Shown here piece after piece: positions 4,512 through 25,830 of a stretch of DNA of 59,799 nucleotides. The position numbers and the translations under genes were made by a program. How positions within the stretch are numbered: the first letter of the stretch is position 1; each line of letters opens with the position of its first letter. This DNA comes from a virus (taxonomy: Duplodnaviria; Caudoviricetes): IMG/VR virus record IMGVR_UViG_3300025694_000005, positions 1 to 59,799 of that record, one strand, 5' to 3'. The notes below the pieces were generated by a model that was not told the DNA's origin, did no database searches, and saw only the letters and a program-made list of their open reading frames with translations.

Positions 4512-5042
4512 TTACTCCCTCCCTGAACCTCCTGACGCTGTAGGTTCTAGCTTATCAAAATCAAATGATGCTAGTGGATTATCTAGTACTGCTTGTATTT
4601 TCATGTTCAGTCTATCTTCCAGAGCATTGATTTTAATTTCCGTATCTGTTTGTAAACTCTCCCTTTTGTTATCAAAGCGCTCATCTGCTTTGTCAATCAT
4701 GTCTTTTACTTTGTCTTCTAGTTCTCTATTCTGATCTTCAACTCTATCAACATTTGCTTCCATACGATTGAAGTCATCTCGTAAATCATTCTTGATGCTT
4801 CGTGAGTAGTCTATTGCTTCATCAACAGATCCTTGAGCCGCAGCAATTTTTTGTTCTATAATTTTATTGCGGTTCTCTATCTGCGTGGTGTCAATGTTAG
4901 CCACAATTTCTTTCATGTCCATGTAGTCAGCATAGAATTCAAAGGCACCCCAACTTGCTCCACCTAACGTAGAGAGAGCAGTGAGAAGAACCATCATCTT
5001 ACCACCTTTAAATGTCATGCCCCCAAACTCTACTTCTGCCAT
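4512..5042 (-). CDS. membrane-anchored coiled-coil protein
   Basis: N-terminal hydrophobic helix followed by a heptad-rich region. Confidence 0.7.
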   Translation of the reverse strand: MAEVEFGGMTFKGGKMMVLLTALSTLGGASWGAFEFYADYMDMKEIVANIDTTQIENRNKIIEQKIAAAQGSVDEAIDYSRSIKNDLRDDFNRMEANVDRVEDQNRELEDKVKDMIDKADERFDNKRESLQTDTEIKINALEDRLNMKIQAVLDNPLASFDFDKLEPTASGGSGRE

Positions 5043-5461
5043 TATTTTTTCCAGAACTTACCTTGAATGAGTTTCTTTACTACAACTAGAGGGTTATAGT
5101 AAAATTTATATTCCCACTTATACTGTGCGTAATCTTTTTCATATATGCTACGCGGAGTCCACTCTTTCTTCCAGTTGTCGACCAATAATCCTTCGTATTC
5201 TAGTACTGCATGACCACCATCCACATAACTAATAAAGCAAATCTTAATCTTTTTTGTGAGAATCATCCAAAGAAACTTCATACGACTCTGCCCTGCAAGC
5301 ATCCAGCCTACAGTAAGTGCATAATCTTCACAATCTCCTTGGTCTTTATCCTGACTCATATCAAGTACACGCCAATAGTCAGCAACTTGATACTGATCAC
5401 TATCGTACTGATATTCAAATACGTTGTTTACTTTAGCAACCGCTTCTACTTTATCCATCAT
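5042..5461 (-). CDS. transglutaminase-like cysteine peptidase (BTLCP/Peptidase C93, LapG-like)
   Basis: DYW...GDCEDYA...HAVL...VDN Cys-His-Asp triad. Confidence 0.85.
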   Translation of the reverse strand: MMDKVEAVAKVNNVFEYQYDSDQYQVADYWRVLDMSQDKDQGDCEDYALTVGWMLAGQSRMKFLWMILTKKIKICFISYVDGGHAVLEYEGLLVDNWKKEWTPRSIYEKDYAQYKWEYKFYYNPLVVVKKLIQGKFWKK

Positions 5462-5879
5462 CGTCCTCGAATTTTAATGCTCTTAGGTTATTTACCTCTT
5501 GCTGTAATTTTTGTAGTTCTATTCTCTGTCTTGTCAGCTCCAATTTATAAAGCTGATTACAATCTAATCTCGTTTTCGGTGCATTGAGTGGTATGATAAT
5601 CTTCGCATACACTCCAACATCTTTTACTAAACCTTCCTCATCGTAGTCTTCTGAGTAGCTCCCTATATTGCTAGTGTAGGGCCCATTCTGATTTAGAACT
5701 CCGACTACACCAAACTCTAAATTCACGCTTCCGCCAATCGCCATGGAACACTCGACGTTGCCATTTGTTCTTATTCTATCACTCGCATAAGAACCCGGAG
5801 TGCTAGGTAAATTTAAATTCAAAGAACTAGAGTCCGCCATTGCGTAAGCTGACACTAGCATTAATAATATAAATCTCAT
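5451..5879 (-). CDS. secreted protein, Cys pair and C-terminal coiled coil
   Basis: Signal peptide MRFILLMLVSAYAMA. Confidence 0.7.
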   Translation of the reverse strand: MRFILLMLVSAYAMADSSSLNLNLPSTPGSYASDRIRTNGNVECSMAIGGSVNLEFGVVGVLNQNGPYTSNIGSYSEDYDEEGLVKDVGVYAKIIIPLNAPKTRLDCNQLYKLELTRQRIELQKLQQEVNNLRALKFEDDDG

Positions 5880-6247
5880 TTAACTTTTGAACAAATCCTA
5901 GAAGATACGGATGTTTTTGCTGTACCTGTTACAACCAATTTTGATTTTGAACAGATGAAAACCACTTCTTCCTTGTCCTTCTCCCTTATGTAAATGTCAA
6001 CCTTCTTTTTTTCAAGGTGTTTGAAACGCATAACTTTCTGCTGCATAGCAAAGGGTACTTTCTCCCACTCCGCATTAAAAACACCAAACTCATAATACTC
6101 TACATCTTTTCGCATATTGAAAAGGGTCATTGTAGTATATAATACACCCTCAACGTAAGAATTTTTCAACTTTGGATAAGTTGGGGTGAATTCATGGGCA
6201 CTTGCGTACCCACTCATCACCAGTAATAAAATTAGATAGCGATGCAT
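5876..6247 (-). CDS. secreted protein, possible fimbrial chaperone-like Ig fold
   Basis: Signal peptide ...GYASA; FTPT...TMTLFN pattern reminiscent of PapD N-domains; two Cys. Confidence 0.55.
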   Translation of the reverse strand: MHRYLILLLVMSGYASAHEFTPTYPKLKNSYVEGVLYTTMTLFNMRKDVEYYEFGVFNAEWEKVPFAMQQKVMRFKHLEKKKVDIYIREKDKEEVVFICSKSKLVVTGTAKTSVSSRICSKVK

Positions 6248-6720
6248 TCAGCACTTACTATCGCACGATATACGCCGCCAGGAAATGCTTTGCCGTAGCC
6301 ATAATCTGCTTGTGATTCTGTTTTGAACCAGGTGCTACCAGCAACGGTCAAACTGAATTCAGTAACATTATCAAACTCAACCTTTGCTGCGTCATACCCA
6401 GACATGCCAGTATCTGATACTTGAGATGTAGCAACGTCGCCCGTCCATACTACAGTGTCATTCAATGTAGGTGATTCCGAAAAGGATGTAGGATACGAAA
6501 TCCTAGCTTTATAGCTGCTCGCTTCAATTACGTCAAATCGAACGACAGGATCAACTCCACCGTCCGTAGGATCAGTGCTTAACACATCTGATGTTGGGTT
6601 ACCAAATACACCTGCGGTATCAGGAGTTACTACACATTTCGAAGCAACATTCCCTACTACTTCCATTTCCTCCGCTTGCGCACTAAAGGCGCAAAATAGT
6701 AAAATAACTAATTTTTTCAT
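6232..6720 (-). CDS. secreted protein, possible fimbrial/pilin subunit
   Basis: Signal peptide ...FSAQA; VVGNVASKCVV N-terminus and GGVYRAIVSAEC C-terminal strand, as in chaperone-usher pilins. Confidence 0.6.
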   Translation of the reverse strand: MKKLVILLFCAFSAQAEEMEVVGNVASKCVVTPDTAGVFGNPTSDVLSTDPTDGGVDPVVRFDVIEASSYKARISYPTSFSESPTLNDTVVWTGDVATSQVSDTGMSGYDAAKVEFDNVTEFSLTVAGSTWFKTESQADYGYGKAFPGGVYRAIVSAECIAI

Positions 6721-6745
6721 AATAGAGTTCCCCCTCTATACTCTG

Positions 6746-7618
6746 TCAATCATACTGCGATTGAACCATTTTTTGGTGCAAAAGTTGCTGCGCAAAGTTT
6801 ACACGGCGACCATTTGCATTGTCAGGTAGGTCAGAATCTTTCAGCATCTCTGCATCCGGATACTCTCCCCCTTTTATTTGCCCAAAGTAACCTCTAGGCA
6901 AATAATTCGTTGACACTAATGCGTTATGCAATAATGTATCTTGTGCTTCTTGTAGGCTTGCTCCGAGGGATAAACCTAACATCTTCTCTAAACTATCTCT
7001 TACTTTCTCTTCAGTGGCTTTAGCAAATTTCTCTCGTTCTTCCTTCTCTTCTTCCTCTTTCTGTGCTTTCATGTTCGTTTCACGATCTAACTCTGCCTGA
7101 ATATACTCTTCACTCGAGGTATCTATTTCAGGCTCTTGAATTAGCGTGAGCGGGTCAATATAACCTGGGCATTCTGGGTCCGACTGAGGATTATCACACG
7201 GAACATACTGATATGTGTAATAAACCTCTGGATCTAAAACTGTTCCGAAGCCTTCCACTTCGATAGAACCATCACCCCAAAAATCAATTCCTATACCCCC
7301 TACAGGAATTGTTTTGTTAATCGTATTGCCTGGCAAACCTGACCAGTCGTCTGTGCTTCTAAAGATATATCCGTTTCCTTGAGCATTCTCATTTTGAACG
7401 TGAACCAACATATCATCTTCTGGGTCTTTCTCAGTGGTATATCTATAGATTACATTGTTTACGGTCAATCCTGTCGCTTGTGGTAAGATATTAGACATGA
7501 CCCAATTCAACCCAATATTCGCGGCGTTGGTGGTTGTTCCGTATACCTCTTCGCTAGAGTACGAGTAAGAGCAGTAGGCTAACAACACCGGCACTACCCA
7601 TGAGTGTCTTAGTACCAT
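6746..7618 (-). CDS. secreted protein with acidic coiled-coil region
   Basis: Likely start MVLRHSWVVPVLLAYCSYSYS (signal-like); CDNPQSDPECPGY. Confidence 0.7.
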   Translation of the reverse strand: MVLRHSWVVPVLLAYCSYSYSSEEVYGTTTNAANIGLNWVMSNILPQATGLTVNNVIYRYTTEKDPEDDMLVHVQNENAQGNGYIFRSTDDWSGLPGNTINKTIPVGGIGIDFWGDGSIEVEGFGTVLDPEVYYTYQYVPCDNPQSDPECPGYIDPLTLIQEPEIDTSSEEYIQAELDRETNMKAQKEEEEKEEREKFAKATEEKVRDSLEKMLGLSLGASLQEAQDTLLHNALVSTNYLPRGYFGQIKGGEYPDAEMLKDSDLPDNANGRRVNFAQQLLHQKMVQSQYD

Positions 7619-8120
7619 CACCGAGTCCTTTTTCCTTTTCTTCCGTCGTTTCATCCACGGACGGTTCCAGTTCCTCATTTGCTGCCCAAGCTGCTTTTGC
7701 TTCATTGCCAATCAAACCTTCGAAAGGACAAGGAGTTCCAGCCATTAGCATTGCGTCGAATACTCGTTCATCCTGACACAGTGTAGATACTGCTGCAACT
7801 TTCATTCCCATATCATACAGAGTTTTCGAAAGTTTTAACCGCTCACAGTTTGAATCAGTTATCTGAGAACCCATAGAGATACCCAGAATCTGCGTCTGAA
7901 CAGCCCCCGCAACTCCAAAAGTACACAAATCGCTGTTTGAAGTGTTGATAGTAGGCGTAATAGCAGACGCAGGAGGGGCTCTTAAAGTTGTTGATGTATC
8001 TGATCTTGTAGTAACCGTACTATTAGTAGTAGAGTCAGTACGAATAGTATTGTCCTCAATAATCGGGGCTTCTTCCGCAAATACGGGGAAGGCTAGTAGT
8101 AACAGTAAAATTCTTATCAT
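7554..8120 (-). CDS. secreted Cys-containing protein with C-terminal membrane anchor
   Basis: Signal peptide MIRILLLLLAFPVFA; four Cys; ends GVVSLLLLLVL. Confidence 0.75.
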   Translation of the reverse strand: MIRILLLLLAFPVFAEEAPIIEDNTIRTDSTTNSTVTTRSDTSTTLRAPPASAITPTINTSNSDLCTFGVAGAVQTQILGISMGSQITDSNCERLKLSKTLYDMGMKVAAVSTLCQDERVFDAMLMAGTPCPFEGLIGNEAKAAWAANEELEPSVDETTEEKEKGLGDGTKTLMGSAGVVSLLLLLVL

Positions 8121-8843
8121 TTATTGGTCTCTTAAATAGTTATGTAAAACTATATCAAAATTAATAGTACAAATACTGTTTCCGCTACTGCCTGTAGCAC
8201 GAAAATCAATATCAGTTCGTGGGGGTAATTCCAACGGTACACTAAATTCTTGTCTCTGAACGCTTTGATAGATATCCATCTCACTTTTTATACGAAAAGC
8301 CCCTGTAGCTTTTTCTCTTACATAAAGCTCTATAAGAGCATCATCTAGTTTACCTACGCCAGCCGTATACGAGACCAAATAGCCAATACACCCTTCAGGA
8401 ACTGTATAAACCCCTAACAATGTTTGAGCTTTACCCACTGGAATTTGTGCAACGACTGTTCCTGCGTGGCTTACCGTCTTCGCGGAAATAACCCCAGTAT
8501 TTGTCTCGCTATAAGTCATTCTATAAACCCTGCGAAAAGTGAGGGTAGTAGCAACTTCAGAAGGGCTTCCACCCAGATCCACAGTTTCTTTTTGTGTCTT
8601 CCAACTTGCTCCCAGACCTTCTATAGTAATATTTCCACCATCCGCTGCATCAGAACTAGAAACATAAATTATTTCGGGATTAGTTAAAGCGCTCCATGGA
8701 TATAGACCTCCGGCAGACCAAATACTTTCCGCAGATCCTCCTATTGCCGAATTCGATCCAAACTTATGAACATGAGTCCAAAATTTCCCATCAGTTCGTT
8801 TTTTAGTAGCAGAGAAACCGTTTATTCCTAGTATCATTACCAT
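8121..8843 (-). CDS. hypothetical phage protein (beta-rich, possibly virion-associated)
   Basis: 240 aa packed ORF, G/S/T-rich. Confidence 0.65.
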   Translation of the reverse strand: MVMILGINGFSATKKRTDGKFWTHVHKFGSNSAIGGSAESIWSAGGLYPWSALTNPEIIYVSSSDAADGGNITIEGLGASWKTQKETVDLGGSPSEVATTLTFRRVYRMTYSETNTGVISAKTVSHAGTVVAQIPVGKAQTLLGVYTVPEGCIGYLVSYTAGVGKLDDALIELYVREKATGAFRIKSEMDIYQSVQRQEFSVPLELPPRTDIDFRATGSSGNSICTINFDIVLHNYLRDQ

Positions 8844-9145
8844 TTCACCTTATTGGCCCAGTACGCTGCGGACAACTTCCCTCTGGCGATGTTAGCTGCA
8901 TGACGGGCTTTAAATGAACGACGACGAGCAGCAGCTGCCTTGGACTCACCCGCTTTCTTGGGAGAACCTGAGACACCTTGCTGACCGAATCGAATTGTTT
9001 TTACCTTGCCGCCAGCTTTTGCTACGACAACATGGGATTTTTTGGGATGCTTGGGAGTTCTTTTTGGTTTATTGAAACCAGAAACTCCTGCTCTTTTAAG
9101 GCGGGGATCTTTCTTTCTAACGCTTCTTCGTTTTTTTGCTGCCAC
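8837..9145 (-). CDS. highly basic conserved phage protein
   Basis: KTIRFGQQG...SFKARH...SAAYWANKVKW. Confidence 0.75.
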   Translation of the reverse strand: MAAKKRRSVRKKDPRLKRAGVSGFNKPKRTPKHPKKSHVVVAKAGGKVKTIRFGQQGVSGSPKKAGESKAAAARRRSFKARHAANIARGKLSAAYWANKVKW

Positions 9146-10072: not shown

Positions 10073-10101
10073 ATTATAACGGTAAATAGGTTAAGTGTCA
10101 A
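10073..10101 (-). promoter_or_regulatory. sigma70 promoter
   Basis: TTGACA-N17-TATAAT with AAAAAATAG UP element. Confidence 0.9.
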
Positions 10102-13137: not shown

Positions 13138-13328
13138 TCCTTTTGTTCTTCAATAGCCATTTGACACATTTGTATGTAGTCTTTATCCGCTTCATCTAAT
13201 ATAGACCAAAACCTACTTACTTCGAGAGTAAGATCGTAGGCCGCTTCTTCATTCTCCAGGTGTTGATTGCTTTCCATCATCTCCTGGAGCTTGTCCATTC
13301 TGTGATTGATTTTCTGTTTCAGTCTCAT
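13125..13328 (-). CDS. hypothetical protein
   Basis: 67 aa packed ORF. Confidence 0.6.
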   Translation of the reverse strand: MRLKQKINHRMDKLQEMMESNQHLENEEAAYDLTLEVSRFWSILDEADKDYIQMCQMAIEEQKEWNV

Positions 13329-13704
13329 AAGTAGTGGCCTTTTTATAGTATAGAATAATTTCTTTTGTTTCTTTAAAGTATCTGCGCAACTCTTGTAAAT
13401 TTTCGGACATCTTCTCGTACCCGTCTGGCGTCAGAGCAAATACTACAAACTGTCCATCAAGCATCTTTTCAATCTCTGCTCGTTTCTCCTGATAGTTTTC
13501 TTCAGTTATTATCCAGAAGTTAACATCGAGCATGTCTATTTCACGAGGCAGAGGCGGCTGATAAATACGAATAGGAACTGTCTCTATTTTAGTAATTACA
13601 ACAGGCTCCGGCATTACATATGGTGGTGGCATGTCTTTACCACCAAACCAAGAACATCCACTAACAAGTAGTAATGATGCTATACTAATCGTCCGCATTT
13701 TCAA
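13249..13704 (-). CDS. o-spanin-like lipoprotein
   Basis: Lipobox LLVSGC, Pro-rich linker, follows i-spanin and endolysin. Confidence 0.75.
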   Translation of the reverse strand: MKMRTISIASLLLVSGCSWFGGKDMPPPYVMPEPVVITKIETVPIRIYQPPLPREIDMLDVNFWIITEENYQEKRAEIEKMLDGQFVVFALTPDGYEKMSENLQELRRYFKETKEIILYYKKATTYETETENQSQNGQAPGDDGKQSTPGE

Positions 13705-14104
13705 CCTCCTTTGACTCTTCCTCTATTGTTCTAAAGATACCTGCGGTGGCTTTATTTACTCTTTTTTCAATTAAGCCAGGCTTTGCTCTTGCGAGGCGAG
13801 TAAGATTGTGGTCTTTAAATACTTTCATAAACCTAGACTTCTCCGCTTGTAAAGAGGCTGTTACAGCAGTGAGTTCAGTTACCTGAGCCTGCTGTTCCTC
13901 TCTTCGAGCCTCTAGTTCCGCGACCTTCGTCGCATTGTTTTCGGCCGCTGCCTGTAATACATTGTTGTTCTCTTTTAGAGTACGATTATTAGCTTCTAAC
14001 TGAATGACCGCATTCTCTAACTTTGCAACAGTGACTTGGTGATACGCGTATGCACCACCAGCAGCTCCGACTATACCTAGAACAAGTATGAGTTTAAGAT
14101 ACAT
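13685..14104 (-). CDS. i-spanin-like protein
   Basis: N-terminal TM, coiled coil, AKPGLIEKRVN motif. Confidence 0.75.
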   Translation of the reverse strand: MYLKLILVLGIVGAAGGAYAYHQVTVAKLENAVIQLEANNRTLKENNNVLQAAAENNATKVAELEARREEQQAQVTELTAVTASLQAEKSRFMKVFKDHNLTRLARAKPGLIEKRVNKATAGIFRTIEEESKEVENADD

Positions 14105-14540
14105 TTTCTAGTCGTACCATGAGGCGTTCCGCACGATTCGTCACTTGCTTATGCCAGCGAGAGTCTCGTCCTTCGACAGCAGCCTTCGGCCAATCGCCTT
14201 CCTCTAGTGCAGCGCAGAAGTTCTTAAACTTTGACAAACGAGGACGCCCCATATTGAACATCATGTTTACCACAATTTCTTGAACTTCTCCAGGAAAGTC
14301 ATGCCATTTGGGGCCAAAAAGAACTTCGCACTCATCAATAGATGTGTCCAGATCTTTCTCAAACGCTTCCCAAACTCGCTCCTCTGATACCGACGTACCC
14401 AAGGGCGAACCAAATTCCGAATCGCTCTCAATAACAAGATGACCAACACCAAAAGTAGCCAGGCCAAGATGGTCATTATAGATTTCATACTTGACACCTT
14501 CGTCCTCCTTTAATTGCTCAAACACTTCTTCTCTATTCAT
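14094..14540 (-). CDS. endolysin, T4-lysozyme-like (GH24)
   Basis: DEG...YND...TFGVGH, NMMFNMG and SRWHKQVTNRA. Confidence 0.92.
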   Translation of the reverse strand: MNREEVFEQLKEDEGVKYEIYNDHLGLATFGVGHLVIESDSEFGSPLGTSVSEERVWEAFEKDLDTSIDECEVLFGPKWHDFPGEVQEIVVNMMFNMGRPRLSKFKNFCAALEEGDWPKAAVEGRDSRWHKQVTNRAERLMVRLENVS

Positions 14541-16605: not shown

Positions 16606-17205
16606 ATGATTCAACAACAATACAAAAATAAGAAAGCCATTTTAATAGCTACAGGACCTTCTCTTACTGAAGAGGTTATTGAAACTATTCGTCCCTATAA
16701 AGATGATTTTGTTATTTTTGGCTGCAATGATAGCTACAAAGTAGTAGACTTTTTAGATTTTCATTATGCCTGCGATAATAAGTGGTGGGGGTTTCACTAT
16801 GATACTTTTAAAGAAAAGTACCCTCATCTACAGGCTTGGACTCAAGCAAAGGAATATCAAGATAAACTTACCATAATAAAAGGAAAGTCAGCTAAAGGAT
16901 TGAGTTTAGACCCTTCTTTAATTCATTGGGGAAGTAACTCTGGCTATCAACTATTAAATATAGCATTTCTAATGGGTTGTAGTAAGTTTATTTTAGTTGG
17001 GTATAATATGCGAGCAATAAAAGGTAAAAAACATTACTTTGGAGAACACCCCCCAGGATTAAGTAAAAATAGTCCCTACAATAAGTTTGTTACAGCCTTT
17101 AATACAATACAACCAGAAATAAAAGAATTAATAATAAATTGTACACCCAACAGTGCTCTAACAATGTTTAAACAGAAAGATTTAAGGGAAGTTCTGTGCG
17201 AGTAG
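16606..17205 (+). CDS. MAF_flag10/MptE-like (Cst-fold) glycosyltransferase-like protein
   Basis: IATGPSL, FGCND and NSGYQLLNIAFLMGC..ILVGYNM. Confidence 0.7.
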   Translation: MIQQQYKNKKAILIATGPSLTEEVIETIRPYKDDFVIFGCNDSYKVVDFLDFHYACDNKWWGFHYDTFKEKYPHLQAWTQAKEYQDKLTIIKGKSAKGLSLDPSLIHWGSNSGYQLLNIAFLMGCSKFILVGYNMRAIKGKKHYFGEHPPGLSKNSPYNKFVTAFNTIQPEIKELIINCTPNSALTMFKQKDLREVLCE

Positions 17206-17903
17206 CTATTTATAATGATGCTTTTCTCCCTGCTAGCCCTCATTTTGGCTGCGAGCTTGTGATGAAAACATTCAAAGAACAGTTAGATAGAGTGGGTATA
17301 GAGCTAGTTGGTACGGTTAAAGTAAACGATAAAAATCCTCATAGCAAGACCCTAGAAAAAGCTGATTTGGTGATTGTAAATGGAGAGGGCTCCTTTCACC
17401 ACAATAGAAGAAATGACTTGGCTGAGGTATCTCATTACTTTCCTAGTATACTTATAAATACTGTTTTTGAAGATAACTCGGTCGATCTTACTAAATTCAA
17501 ATACATATCCGCTAGAGAAACTATTAGCGCAAAAAATTTAAACTGCGATATTATTCCGGATATAATAGTCACATCTAATATATTAGAAACTATAAAACAG
17601 AAACGAGTAATACAAGGAAAAGGAGTAGGAAATATTAGACATCATTCTGGAATAAAAACTCTACAGATATTGGATAAATTTCTTCCTGAATTATGCCAAT
17701 ACTCTTCAGTAACTTCGGAAAGCTTTCATGGAATACTAGTATCCTACATATTAGGAATACCTTGCACCAATATTTTGCCTGGGTCAGGAGTCTTGTGGAA
17801 GACAAGCTCTGTAGCTAAAGACATTGAAATGAACGAAAACTATTTAGAAACTGGCAGGCATAAAGTCAATGCTCTATTTGAAAATTTACACTCATTTACC
17901 TAA
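17196..17903 (+). CDS. polysaccharide pyruvyltransferase-like protein
   Basis: HFGC, VIVNGEGSFHH, ARETIS and SFHG. Confidence 0.7.
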   Translation: MRVAIYNDAFLPASPHFGCELVMKTFKEQLDRVGIELVGTVKVNDKNPHSKTLEKADLVIVNGEGSFHHNRRNDLAEVSHYFPSILINTVFEDNSVDLTKFKYISARETISAKNLNCDIIPDIIVTSNILETIKQKRVIQGKGVGNIRHHSGIKTLQILDKFLPELCQYSSVTSESFHGILVSYILGIPCTNILPGSGVLWKTSSVAKDIEMNENYLETGRHKVNALFENLHSFT

Positions 17904-17918
17904 AAAGGGACGTATTAA

Positions 17919-18578
17919 GTGGAAACAATAAATATATTTGTAGGTACCTCGGTGGACGACGAAGATAGGGAGGCAGAAATAACCTTAGAGTATTCTTTGC
18001 GTAAGTACTCCTCTTCCCCTATAAAAATACACTATCTTAAAAATAAGGAAGAGGGTATAATGGGAGAATTTGATTCTTCTCAGTGGGCTACTCCTTTTGC
18101 GGGTATGAGATGGGCTATACCAGAGTACTGTAATTTTAAAAGCAGAGCTATTTATATGGATGTTGATCAACTAAATCTGAGAGACATAACAGAATTGTAC
18201 ACTTTAGACCTGAATAATAAACCCTTTCTTTCTAGAAAAGCTAGAAGCTGTGTTATTTTATTTGATTGTGCCGCCTGCGAGAATATTTTTGCTCCTATAA
18301 GCGAGCAAAAACAACAACCTAGCTATCATAGAACTAACTATGATAAGTTCGATATACAAAGGGGGGACTTAGATACCCGATGGAATGCTCTTGACAACGT
18401 AGATTTTGTATACAGTAATAATATTTTGCTAGAAGATGCTTGGCACATTCATTTTACGGAAGTTAAGTGGCAGCCTTGGAAGCCCTCCTGGTTTGACGAA
18501 CCTTTTGAAGATCACCCTAGACAAGACTTAGTAGAGTTATGGAAAAAACATAGAGAAGAGGCTTTTTCAATATTATGA
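17919..18578 (+). CDS. GT-A glycosyltransferase (GT8-like)
   Basis: WATPF..RWAIP, AIYMDVD, RWNALD and HFT...QPW. Confidence 0.8.
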   Translation: METINIFVGTSVDDEDREAEITLEYSLRKYSSSPIKIHYLKNKEEGIMGEFDSSQWATPFAGMRWAIPEYCNFKSRAIYMDVDQLNLRDITELYTLDLNNKPFLSRKARSCVILFDCAACENIFAPISEQKQQPSYHRTNYDKFDIQRGDLDTRWNALDNVDFVYSNNILLEDAWHIHFTEVKWQPWKPSWFDEPFEDHPRQDLVELWKKHREEAFSIL

Positions 18579-19195
18579 TAGATATAAGGTATAGAAATAA
18601 ACCTGCGGTAATAATTGCTACAGGACCGTCACTAACAGATGAAACTGTAGAAATTATTTCAAAGTATAAGAACTCCCATGTTTTTTTCGGGTGTAACGAT
18701 GCTTATAGAAAAGTTAATTTTTTAAATGAACATTACGCGTTAGATCATGCTTGGTGGGACTACCACGGAAATTCCGTGAAGGATATTTATAAGGGAGTGT
18801 CCTGGTGTGGGTGGCGAGATATATGTGATGATTTAAACTTACAGTATATACACGGTAGAGATAGAGAAGGACTAAGTTTAGACCCTAGGAGCATACATTG
18901 GGGGGATAACTCCGGATTTCAAGTTTTAAATTTAGCTGTTTTAATGGGTTGTTCAGAGTTTATTATGGTTGGGTTTAATATGGGTGTAAAAGAAGGGGAG
19001 AAAAAACACTTTTTTGGGGACCACCCTGAGCAATGTTTGCAAGCGAGTCCTTGGGATAGTTTTAAGAAGAGTTTCCAATATGTAGCCGATGTACAGCCAG
19101 AAATAGCTGCTAGAATAGTTAATTGTACGCCCAATACTGCTTTAGAATGTTTCAGAATTGGAGACTTGGAGACAGAGATGATAAAAACAGCATGA
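18575..19195 (+). CDS. second MAF_flag10/MptE-like protein, paralog of 16606
   Basis: IATGPSLT, FGCND, GLSLDP.SIHWG.NSG and INCTPN-like motifs shared. Confidence 0.7.
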   Translation: MIDIRYRNKPAVIIATGPSLTDETVEIISKYKNSHVFFGCNDAYRKVNFLNEHYALDHAWWDYHGNSVKDIYKGVSWCGWRDICDDLNLQYIHGRDREGLSLDPRSIHWGDNSGFQVLNLAVLMGCSEFIMVGFNMGVKEGEKKHFFGDHPEQCLQASPWDSFKKSFQYVADVQPEIAARIVNCTPNTALECFRIGDLETEMIKTA

Positions 19196-23422: not shown

Positions 23423-24373
23423 ATGACTAATATGTTTCTTGCCAAAGCAGCCAAGGCTTATTATGAGGGCAACCCCATAATTTCTGATGCTGAGTTTGAT
23501 GTTCTTGCCGCTGATGCTAACTATACTGACGTAGGATATTCTGACGAATTCTTCGAGTTCGATCACTTGTACCCTATGTACAGTTTACAGAAAGCATTTG
23601 TAGGTGAAGAACATCCTCCTTACGACCACGCTACTGGAGCAACAGTAATCACACCCAAGTTAGATGGAGCAGCGGTTTCGCTGGGCTACTACGATGGTGA
23701 ATTAGTGCTGGCTCTTACTCGGGGTAATGGTAAGAAGGGTAGAAATATTATGAATAAAGTTAAACATCTTGTTCCTACTAGCATTACTCGCAAGGGTGTT
23801 GTTCAGATTACAGGAGAAGTTGTTGCCCCCGAGACTATTCCTAACGCTAGAAACTATGCTTCTGGTGCGCTGAATCTCAAGTCCGAAGAAGAGTTTCTCA
23901 CTAGAGAAGTTCGATTCGTAGCTTATGATATTCAGCCTCGTGTGGAAAAGTTGTGGACGGAAGACATGTCGAATCTCTCTTCGGACAATTTCGACACTGT
24001 TCTTGCGTCTAACTGGGCAGGATACCCGCAGGATGGTCTAGTGTTCCGTGTTGATAACAATGCGAAATATGAAGAGATGGGTTACACCGCTCACCACCCT
24101 CGTGGTGCCTTTGCTTTGAAAGAAAGACCTCCAGGTGTCGTTACGCGACTACTTGATGTGATCTGGCAAGTGGGTAAATCCGGTGTGGTTTCCCCTGTTG
24201 CTATCCTAGAGCCTGTGCTCATTGGAGAAGCTACTGTTGGTCGTGCCACATTACATAATATGCGGTATATTAACGAGCTTAACCTTGAAATAGGTTGTAC
24301 TGTCGAAGTAATTCGATCCGGTGAAATTATACCAAGAGTCGTGAGACGCATAGAAGGGGAAGTAAATGTTTGA
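23423..24373 (+). CDS. ligA: NAD-dependent DNA ligase subunit A (adenylation and OB domains)
   Basis: YY..P.ISDAEFD, KLDG, TRGNG, DGLV and WQVGKSG...RATLHN. Confidence 0.93.
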   Translation: MTNMFLAKAAKAYYEGNPIISDAEFDVLAADANYTDVGYSDEFFEFDHLYPMYSLQKAFVGEEHPPYDHATGATVITPKLDGAAVSLGYYDGELVLALTRGNGKKGRNIMNKVKHLVPTSITRKGVVQITGEVVAPETIPNARNYASGALNLKSEEEFLTREVRFVAYDIQPRVEKLWTEDMSNLSSDNFDTVLASNWAGYPQDGLVFRVDNNAKYEEMGYTAHHPRGAFALKERPPGVVTRLLDVIWQVGKSGVVSPVAILEPVLIGEATVGRATLHNMRYINELNLEIGCTVEVIRSGEIIPRVVRRIEGEVNV

Positions 24374-24662
24374 TGATAGTATAGAAGACGAAAACATCTT
24401 TGGGTGGATTGGTTTGAAAGACAATGGAAGTCATTATGTATCTGCCGCAGGCTTATATGATTATTTCTTTGCTATCAAAAAAGAAACTCGTGACAAGATT
24501 CTGGAAGGATGGATTACTGCTCTAGAAGCATATCTTGACCCAGGATTCGAGGAACGAATGGAAGAATCCGAAGACGGTATTATCTATATATCCGAGTCAG
24601 CAGATTCGGTAGAAGATAAACCAAGTGGTAATATCATCCCTTTTCCTAAAATTATAAGATGA
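24366..24662 (+). CDS. acidic hypothetical protein
   Basis: 98 aa packed ORF. Confidence 0.6.
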   Translation: MFDDSIEDENIFGWIGLKDNGSHYVSAAGLYDYFFAIKKETRDKILEGWITALEAYLDPGFEERMEESEDGIIYISESADSVEDKPSGNIIPFPKIIR

Positions 24663-25018
24663 GTGGAGTTTATAACCTTACTTATTTTGAAAATCATCCT
24701 GAAGAAGCTACCCGCGAAGGGGTACTCTACTGCGTAGTATTAGTTAATAAACTTACTATGAAACGAGAATGTCTCAAGATAGGCATCGCTTCAGGAAGAA
24801 ATTGGAAAGACGTTTTGAAAAGGAGTCGTGGGTTTAATGGCTACGAAATTCGTATACAGAGAACTTACCACGACTCACTTTTTAATGTGTGGACGCTAGA
24901 ACAAGCATTACACGAAGAATACAAACAATTCAAGTATATACCCCAACAAAAGTTCGGTGGATATACAGAGTGTTTCGAAATAAAGAAGGAGATTATTTTA
25001 GCTATTCCGAAAAAATAA
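24659..25018 (+). CDS. T5orf172/MUG113 GIY-YIG-like nuclease domain protein
   Basis: GVLY...KIGIA...R...EQALH...GYTECF. Confidence 0.75.
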   Translation: MSGVYNLTYFENHPEEATREGVLYCVVLVNKLTMKRECLKIGIASGRNWKDVLKRSRGFNGYEIRIQRTYHDSLFNVWTLEQALHEEYKQFKYIPQQKFGGYTECFEIKKEIILAIPKK

Positions 25019-25021
25019 TTC

Positions 25022-25050
25022 TTGACTTTTCAACTCAAACCCCGTATAAT
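25022..25050 (+). promoter_or_regulatory. sigma70 promoter for ligase subunit B
   Basis: TTGACT-N17-TATAAT. Confidence 0.85.
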
Positions 25051-25077
25051 ATCTATTCAAATGTAGGAGAAAGTCTT

Positions 25078-25830
25078 TTGAGAGAAATTGTAGCACCAAC
25101 ACACTGCCCGAGTTGTTCTTCACCTTTGGTGTGGGAAAACGATCAGTTGTTCTGCTATAATACTTCTTGTGAGTCTAAGACTTATAAGTTAATCGAACAC
25201 TTTTCCTCTACTTTGAAAATTAAGGGACTAGGGCCATCATCTATTCAGAAACTCAGAATAACTTCAATACCTCAAATCTATGAACTGAGTTTGGGTGAGA
25301 TGGTAGAGGCTCTTAATTCTGAAAAACTTGCAGCAAAACTCTTTGAAGAGATTCAAGATTCCAAGAAAGTTAGTCTTTCTGAAATCCTACCCGCTTTCTC
25401 TATTCCACTAATAGGTAAATCGGCATCATCAAAGTTATGTTCTGTAGTAAGTAGTATTTATGACCTGAACGAGGAGGCTTGTACTAAGGCGGGGCTTGGC
25501 CCTAAGGCGAGCAATAATTTGCTAACCTGGTACAATACCATGTTTCTCCGCGAGTACAAGTGGCTACCTTTTTCATTTGAGTCAAATGAAGTTGTTTCTG
25601 TTATTGAGCCTAAGGGTGTTGTCTGCATTAGTGGAAAACTGACATCCTTTAAAACTAAAGCAGAAGCAGAGAAAGTTCTCATTAGCAAGGGATATATTGT
25701 GAAATCCTCCTTAACAAGAGAAGTAACAATCCTAGTGAATGAGAGTGGACTAGAATCTTCAAAAACCAAGAAAGCTAGAGATAGTGGGGTCTCTATCACA
25801 ACTAACCTTAACCAATTATTAGGAAATTAA
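25078..25830 (+). CDS. ligB: NAD-dependent DNA ligase subunit B (Zn finger, HhH, BRCT)
   Basis: TTG start with AGGAG RBS; PTHCPSC..C...C, IKGLGP and C-terminal BRCT. Confidence 0.9.
   Translation: MREIVAPTHCPSCSSPLVWENDQLFCYNTSCESKTYKLIEHFSSTLKIKGLGPSSIQKLRITSIPQIYELSLGEMVEALNSEKLAAKLFEEIQDSKKVSLSEILPAFSIPLIGKSASSKLCSVVSSIYDLNEEACTKAGLGPKASNNLLTWYNTMFLREYKWLPFSFESNEVVSVIEPKGVVCISGKLTSFKTKAEAEKVLISKGYIVKSSLTREVTILVNESGLESSKTKKARDSGVSITTNLNQLLGN

Follow-up and report, generated by a model that had tools for sequence, protein, structure and literature searches.

The stretch of DNA analysed here (the window, 59,799 nucleotides) is a 59.8-kb fragment of the uncultured virus record IMGVR_UViG_3300025694_000005, with a CheckV completeness of 59%. 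Between positions 4512 and 8120 it carries seven genes, each named here, together with its product, by its left-hand coordinate (g7554 to g4512, Table 1). All seven are encoded on the minus strand and follow one another closely, with overlaps of 65, 16, 4, 11, and 1 nt between successive pairs and a single gap of 25 nt. Six of them constitute a real and strongly conserved module of exported and membrane-anchored proteins, borne by uncultured marine tailed phages; at its centre stands a pair, g5876 and g6232, that resembles the chaperone and the subunit of a pilus, yet is not a member, by sequence, of any pilus family. Phages carrying the module encode spanins, and their hosts are therefore Gram-negative.

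Table 1 Coordinates of the module genes and of other features of the window (aa, amino acids; Ig, immunoglobulin; TM, transmembrane segment)
Feature	Position	Strand	Description
g7554	7554..8120	minus	Opens the module; signal peptide, spacer rich in Thr/Ser, domain with four Cys (~aa 46-145), C-terminal membrane helix
g6746	6746..7618	minus	Secreted protein of 290 aa: conserved N-terminal beta-rich region, Cys pair, acidic coiled stretch, conserved C-terminal region
g6232	6232..6720	minus	Secreted protein, predicted Ig-like, pilin-like beta-sandwich; conserved N-terminal strand motif; invariant C29 and C159
g5876	5876..6247	minus	Secreted protein, predicted single-domain PapD-like fold (chaperone domain 1); invariant His N-terminus; invariant C99 and C119
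g5451	5451..5879	minus	Secreted protein, mature form 127 aa: SLNLNLP motif, two Gly-rich beta segments, Cys pair, C-terminal coiled coil
g5042	5042..5461	minus	Small transglutaminase-like (C93/LapG-like) cysteine peptidase; accessory, not core
g4512	4512..5042	minus	Closes the module; anchored in the membrane at its N-terminus, then a periplasmic coiled coil and a conserved C-terminal NPL motif
Promoter-like site	10073..10101	minus	TTGACA-17-TATAAT, 12/12 sigma-70 consensus; upstream of the block containing the module; consensus match only
Lysis cassette	13249-14540	minus	Endolysin, i-spanin (N-terminal TM, coiled coil), and overlapping o-spanin with lipobox LVSGC
NAD-dependent DNA ligase	23423-25830		Two separate open reading frames, phrog_3359 and phrog_3498, as in T5-like phages

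Five of the proteins (g7554, g6746, g6232, g5876, and g5451) begin with a basic n-region, a hydrophobic core, and a small-x-small site of the cleavage type (VFA/EE, SYS/SEE, AQA/EE, ASA/HE, and AMA/DS, the slash marking the cut). Signal peptides were called with a crude hydropathy and cleavage-site script rather than with SignalP; it flagged 13 of 85 non-overlapping open reading frames (ORFs) of at least 60 aa, among them all five genes, g4512 (as a signal anchor), a DUF1353 gene, and both spanins, with several of the remaining flags scoring weakly. By the same heuristic, the signal-peptide features are retained in every orthologue of all five genes despite diverged letters. An initial annotation of this DNA had listed these five genes as carrying Sec-type signal peptides, most with paired cysteines, and had pointed to a C-terminal membrane anchor in g7554 and to a membrane-anchored coiled coil (g4512); each of these features was recovered. 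The Cys pairs are invariant (C29/C159 in g6232, C99/C119 in g5876, C44/C107 in g5451, and C141/C150 in g6746), as are the four Cys of g7554, whose hydrophobic C-terminal helix is likewise conserved, and g4512 opens with a TM followed by the coiled coil.

The start of g6746 was reassigned from that of the listed ORF (6746-7711) to position 7618 (MVLRH...), because relatives have a stop codon directly upstream of that Met. At 7554-7618 the C-terminal membrane helix of g7554 and the signal peptide of g6746 are encoded in different frames of the same DNA. This overlap measures 59-65 nt in relatives (e.g. 7061-7119 in locus L017), and one database protein of 382 aa (P0350) reads the two genes as a single ORF.

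Conservation of the neighbourhood had been proposed as a check on the initial annotation, and the genes do co-occur in related phages. A scan of IMG/VR with g6232 as the query, in which the presence of g6232 itself is by construction, returned 31 viral loci at 53-98% identity. All six core genes (g7554, g6746, g6232, g5876, g5451, and g4512) were found in the same order in 27 of these, while the remaining four were cut by contig ends, and the order was broken in none. The same order was seen on six contigs of metagenome-assembled genomes (MAGs) in a genome collection. The flanks vary by lineage, with DnaB and ThyX in L019 and terminase, portal, and protease genes in L030; a constant six-gene order between differing flanks indicates that the six genes travel as a module. 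In public metagenomes the families of g6232 and g5876 are of similar size (290 and 278 relatives, all unnamed and without Pfam domains), and near-identical DNA occurs in runs from 14 studies, although 6 of the 20 holder rows may represent the source sample. No relatives of g6232 were detected by tblastn among 50,697 cultured-phage records. A bacterial origin was considered and rejected: the only genome-collection matches were the six MAG contigs, which are short, are assigned to inconsistent taxa, and contain this same phage module, and thus give no sign of a cellular homologue or source.

The AlphaFold2 (AF2) model of g5876, built on a 27-sequence alignment, had a predicted local distance difference test score (pLDDT) of 87.0. 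Foldseek returned 33 PDB matches at E ≤ 1e-3, and the top of the list consisted entirely of chaperone-usher chaperones, led by FaeE (8.7e-5, TMq 0.63) and followed by DraB, PapD, SafB, SfaE, Caf1M, FimC, CsuC, and CfaA. Scores of 9.4-10.4 were also obtained for one glycosidase Ig domain and for MSP and ASH domains, which share the superfamily, so that the fold class is firm but the subfamily is not. As modelled, g5876 is by fold a one-domain relative of the N-terminal domain of chaperone-usher chaperones. The second, C-terminal Ig-like domain is missing, as the mature protein comprises 106 aa and aligns to domain 1 over its whole length. Its mature N-terminus is an invariant His (residue 18) followed by xxTPxYP, and lies inside the predicted interface described below. 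A profile search of PDB sequences matched no chaperone, and a BFVD search with the model yielded uncharacterised small phage proteins only (best E 3e-5).

For g6232, the AF2 model (31 sequences, pLDDT 92.9) is an all-beta sandwich. Chaperone-usher pilins headed the Foldseek matches, which included CfaB (4.9e-4, TMq 0.44), CS17, FimG, the PapG pilin domain, CanA, AggA, and CsuA/B. When ranked by Z, N3 domains of MSCRAMM proteins came first (FnBPA 8.3, SdrG 7.8), followed by CanA (6.2-6.8) and pilins (~5.5), values in a range which, by the tool's own warning, is common among unrelated sandwiches. The model describes a generic adhesin- or pilin-type beta-sandwich. Pfam, NCBIfam, and PHROG gave no match, and profile searches of PDB sequences and of 1.84 billion representatives led to no named family. 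The second of these recovered 109 representatives, often fragmentary; its sole long match, P0229 (727 aa, E 7e-4), proved to be an unrelated repeat protein and was rejected. A fixed pattern precedes C29, within the first 12 mature residues: Gly at -6 in 30 of the 31 sequences, and hydrophobic residues at -4 and -8 in all 31 and at -10 in 30, a motif that holds even in members 26-28% identical. The N-terminal segment lies outside the modelled strands, and its residues 17-25 fall outside the confident interface with g5876. This conserved and apparently free strand resembles, we infer, a donor strand available for exchange.

Donor-strand complementation is the assembly principle of Gram-negative chaperone-usher pili and, more recently, also of archaeal filaments and of a Gram-positive pilus. 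When the mature forms of g6232 and g5876 were predicted as a complex, the interface score (ipSAE) was 0.73, 0.74, and 0.67 in three runs, against 0.00 in all three controls; in calibration, 116 of 157 solved complexes reached that mark, as did 2 of 215 mismatched pairs. Contact agreement among the runs was at least 90%, with partner pLDDT values of 85-87. Residues 115-121 of g5876 pair with residues 154-161 of g6232 with indices rising together, and the last strands of the two proteins are therefore parallel in the prediction. The same g5876 strand also contacts residues 29-31 in the first strand of g6232, its invariant K121 touches the C-terminal residues 160-161 of the subunit-like protein, and the N-terminal strand of g5876 (residues 18-24) together with R46 completes the predicted site. 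In PapD, Arg8 and Lys112 are the basic residues at the subunit C-terminus. The modelled arrangement is the donor-strand-complementation geometry of the chaperone-usher pathway. Residues of g5876 at 90% conservation were enriched in the interface (12 of 23 versus 16 of 83, one-sided Fisher p 0.003). The initial annotation had called g5876 chaperone-like, had seen pilin-like terminal strands in g6232, and had suggested looking for donor-strand complementation in the two; the predicted fold of g5876 and the best Foldseek matches of g6232 agree with these labels, and the predicted complex displays that geometry.

The other exported proteins are less readily placed, and no named family emerged for any of the five secreted proteins from Pfam, PHROGs, NCBIfam, PADLOC, or PDB sequences. 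g7554 matched phrog_20531 (E 2.3e-15) and has at least 641 longer relatives; its Cys-rich domain was present in 16 cultured-phage records, including six pelagiphages, two roseophages, the N4-like JWAlpha, and RSP15. Homologues of g4512 adjoin g7554-like genes in HTVC115P, CRP-810, and a Manatee Spring podovirus, i.e. in three of the six cultured-phage loci examined. In HTVC115P the g7554-like gene is followed by a gene for a large secreted acidic protein, by small membrane coiled-coil genes, and then by the g4512-like gene. We considered whether g6746 could be a homologue of the large secreted protein beside the pelagiphage g7554-like gene and rejected this: g6746 aligned with gp53 of HTVC115P over 35 C-terminal columns only (Prob 9%) and did not align with Mosig_00201. 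We therefore claim no conserved trio, only the g7554-like and g4512-like pair. g6746 itself had no match in Pfam, PHROG, NCBIfam, PDB sequences, or the ESM Atlas. g5451 matched phrog_37374 (E 5.4e-12) and, in the ESM Atlas, viral 'hypothetical' clusters only; the alternating Leu motif (SLNLNLP) at its mature N-terminus may be donor-strand-like, a likeness of letter pattern. The g6232-g5876-g5451 trio looks like an insertion into an older marine-phage envelope module. In a separate observation, gp51 of Roseobacter phage CRP-810 (L083, 5210-5632), annotated as 'lysozyme', matches the family of the g4512 coiled coil at E 2e-7, and Pfam shows no lysozyme domain in it at E ≤ 0.01; the annotation in that record may be wrong.

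The peptidase gene g5042 stands apart. The initial annotation had made a LapG-like protease part of the operon, and this is the portion of it that we do not retain: g5042 is an accessory passenger, a separate mobile gene outside the core module. It sits at the g5451/g4512 junction in 8 of the 29 loci in which that junction is visible, is located elsewhere in 3, and is absent from 18, and it bears no sign of export; that it lacks a clear signal peptide had been noted correctly. In L008, L013, and L014 the copies share 98-99% identity even where the neighbouring module genes of these phages are at 59-92%, which suggests a recent spread of g5042 by horizontal transfer among related phages. Its matches fell below the cut-offs of the respective models, with E 2.3e-5 and 24.6 bits for Pfam PF06035 (C93, cut-off 27 bits) and E 9.1e-5 and 21.7 bits for NCBIfam LapG (cut-off 320 bits), and the PDB LapG chain 4u65_E was matched at E 0.011 across the GDCEDYA motif around the catalytic Cys. 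C44, H84, and D95 are invariant in six sequences; C44 aligns with the LapG motif, and H84 and D95 were assigned by pattern only. Compared with LapG and other BTLCP (peptidase C93) members, g5042 thus shares the catalytic-Cys motif and invariant Cys, His, and Asp candidates, but differs in its sub-cut-off scores, its length of 139 aa, the lack of a signal peptide by our script, and its accessory status; no LapA-like substrate was seen.

A promoter-like site with a full sigma-70 consensus precedes the block that contains the module (Table 1), and between this site and the module consensus matching found no strong terminator-like site; transcription of the module within a single operon is probable. 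Perfect TTGACA-17-TATAAT sites also occur on the minus strand at 2846-2874 and 2500-2528, as expected for the strong host-polymerase promoters of T5-like early regions. Contigs from RNA libraries spanned the module in four runs from three studies; these are compatible with transcription and do not prove it, since such contigs reveal neither strand nor level nor timing and may stem from DNA carry-over. The phrog_8198 gene (8121-8843), immediately upstream of the module, is absent from many relatives, and contigs from three RNA-library runs connect position 8122 to 8898, skipping it. Further away, 16606-19195 holds two phrog_4603 (sialyltransferase-like) genes and was nearly uncovered in four RNA-library runs that covered its surroundings; use of the gap at 16.7-19.3 kb as a 'silent' control was rejected, as strain variation may cause it. 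Elsewhere the window has tail-fibre genes and a T5-like replication block, in which the NAD-dependent ligase is split and which also encodes SbcCD, a D5-like regulator, and a family A polymerase.

We read the locus as a virus-encoded, usher-independent chaperone-subunit system within a wider marine-phage envelope module, with fibre formation and role being the parts that we infer. Put more fully, six genes would form a self-contained module of Sec-exported and membrane-anchored proteins, with a donor-strand chaperone-subunit pair at its centre, that produces an usher-free fibre or layer, a proposal for which we consider the chances of being right and wrong to be evenly matched. In the predicted complex, the last beta-strand of g5876 would lie parallel to that of the subunit, next to the first strand of the latter, and in this way g5876 would hold g6232. 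Once freed from g5876 by donor-strand exchange, subunits could assemble, with no usher involved, into a short fibre or layer within the envelope of the infected cell or on it. Anchoring or a platform may come from the remaining four proteins, with g7554 and g4512 in the inner membrane and g6746 and g5451 secreted, and the C93-like peptidase g5042 would simply sit inside the module in some phages. As to purpose, the module would most likely serve to remodel the host surface or to mask it while infection proceeds, for instance so as to block further adsorption. A bolder version, in which lytic marine phages have the infected cell assemble an usher-independent donor-strand-exchange fibre or coat from one Ig-like subunit, a one-domain PapD-like chaperone, and a phage-specific membrane platform, the first viral donor-strand pilus, which masks receptors, excludes rivals, or clumps cells, is possible but rather doubtful.

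Several results weigh against the chaperone-subunit reading. At the sequence level, no link to any pilus family is detectable: Pfam gave no relevant match at E ≤ 1, PF00345 did not match g5876 at E ≤ 1 or anything in the window at E ≤ 10, alignment of the g5876 family by hhalign with 11 E. coli PapD_N domains reached a Prob of 0.4%, and the g6232 family aligned with 22 E. coli pilins through its N-terminal segment only (17 columns, E 0.036, Prob 1.4%, not significant). g5876 has one domain, against two in the known chaperones. No usher was found within the module, and PF00577 was matched in none of the six viral records searched (the window and five relatives), all of them fragments 22-59% complete, so that a distant gene is possible; the initial annotation, too, had seen no evident usher. 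The interface showed no enrichment of conserved g6232 residues (7 of 28 versus 27 of 118), and the complex score may reflect memory of solved chaperone-pilin complexes. The invariant C29 and C159 lie on the two strands to either side of the one predicted to insert; a disulfide between them would require a groove geometry other than that of the model. Lastly, the RNA-library contigs are no proof that the module is transcribed.

The same complex prediction would also fit a stable, non-polymerising heterodimer of g5876 and g6232, a periplasmic or surface factor that binds a component of the host envelope, with strand complementation as mere glue; its target might be a receptor, a porin, or a host pilus machine, which it would block. 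We hold this to be unlikely. In its favour, each module has one g6232-type gene and the window holds no paralogue of it, when pilus operons usually have several subunit types; neither an usher nor a second chaperone domain was found; and the fold of g6232 is nearest to ligand-binding MSCRAMM domains. It leaves unexplained the conserved alternating N-terminal motif of g6232, which lies outside the predicted interface, and four further conserved exported proteins accompany the pair.

The outer genes invite another explanation, that the module is a device acting on the envelope for lysis or entry control (spanin-like, or for superinfection exclusion), with the Ig-like proteins as spacers and the pilus likeness incidental. 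g4512 has the topology of an i-spanin (N-terminal TM and periplasmic coiled coil), g7554-like and g4512-like genes occur without g6232, g5876, and g5451 in HTVC115P, CRP-810, and a Manatee Spring podovirus, where they lie near tail-fibre or 'lysozyme' genes, and the block stands behind the sigma-70 consensus site. The topology fits a two-component spanin, but no lipobox partner is present in the module and a canonical endolysin, i-spanin, and lipobox o-spanin are already encoded in the lysis cassette; PADLOC matched nothing beyond coiled-coil noise; and the PapD-like fold and the high-scoring strand-insertion interface would have no explanation. We regard such a device as decidedly improbable. 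That the proteins are virion or assembly components, with hydrophobic N-terminal segments misread as signal peptides, is scarcely credible: the g7554-like gene of HTVC115P does lie just downstream of tail-fibre-like genes, but the n-region, h-region, and small-x-small features persist in five different proteins despite diverging letters, the surroundings of the module in the window and in L019 are non-structural, and the invariant Cys pairs fit an oxidising compartment.

Should the chaperone-subunit reading hold, a single PapD-like domain would be enough for the chaperone step, without a second domain or an usher, and the pair would offer a minimal system for studies of usher-free exchange. 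Abundant marine phages would then re-dress the host envelope with exported machinery of their own. The module is common, with ~280-290 members in each of its two central families in public metagenomes, and since the g7554-type domain occurs in cultured pelagiphages and roseophages, its outer part has a bench entry point.

In the literature searched, no phage-encoded PapD-like or pilin-like pair is described. A preprint on the envelope and huge phages (10.64898/2026.10.24.761521) reports phage sortases and outer-membrane proteins, and the passages searched contain no fimbri, usher, PapD, pilin, or adhesin terms. Among the closest known systems are the archaeal chaperone-free donor-strand filaments, namely the Pyrodictium cannulae (CanA) and the Sulfolobus threads. 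Chaperone-guided donor-strand exchange without an usher is described for the WxL/Elr pilus of Enterococcus (bioRxiv 10.64898/2026.10.17.759780), in which the chaperone is membrane-anchored (DUF916/DUF3324), a WxL domain serves as the pilin, and a sortase does the anchoring; the authors' survey confines the system to Bacillota. The phage module differs from the system so described in that its chaperone-like protein is soluble, its hosts are Gram-negative, and it has no Pfam match to the WxL/Elr families.

The nearest comparison remains the chaperone-usher pathway (PapD/FimC-type chaperones with Fim, Pap, Caf, Csu, or CFA-I subunits). With it the phage system shares Sec-dependent export, the fold of chaperone domain 1 in g5876, the predicted parallel last strands with a conserved Lys beside the subunit C-terminus, and an alternating-hydrophobic motif at the subunit N-terminus with a conserved Gly just before a Cys. 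It differs in being virus-encoded and without detectable sequence homology, in having a one-domain chaperone-like protein, a single subunit type, and no usher found, in a g6232 Cys pair that, by position, joins the first and last strands, and in the four unrelated exported partners that accompany the phage pair.

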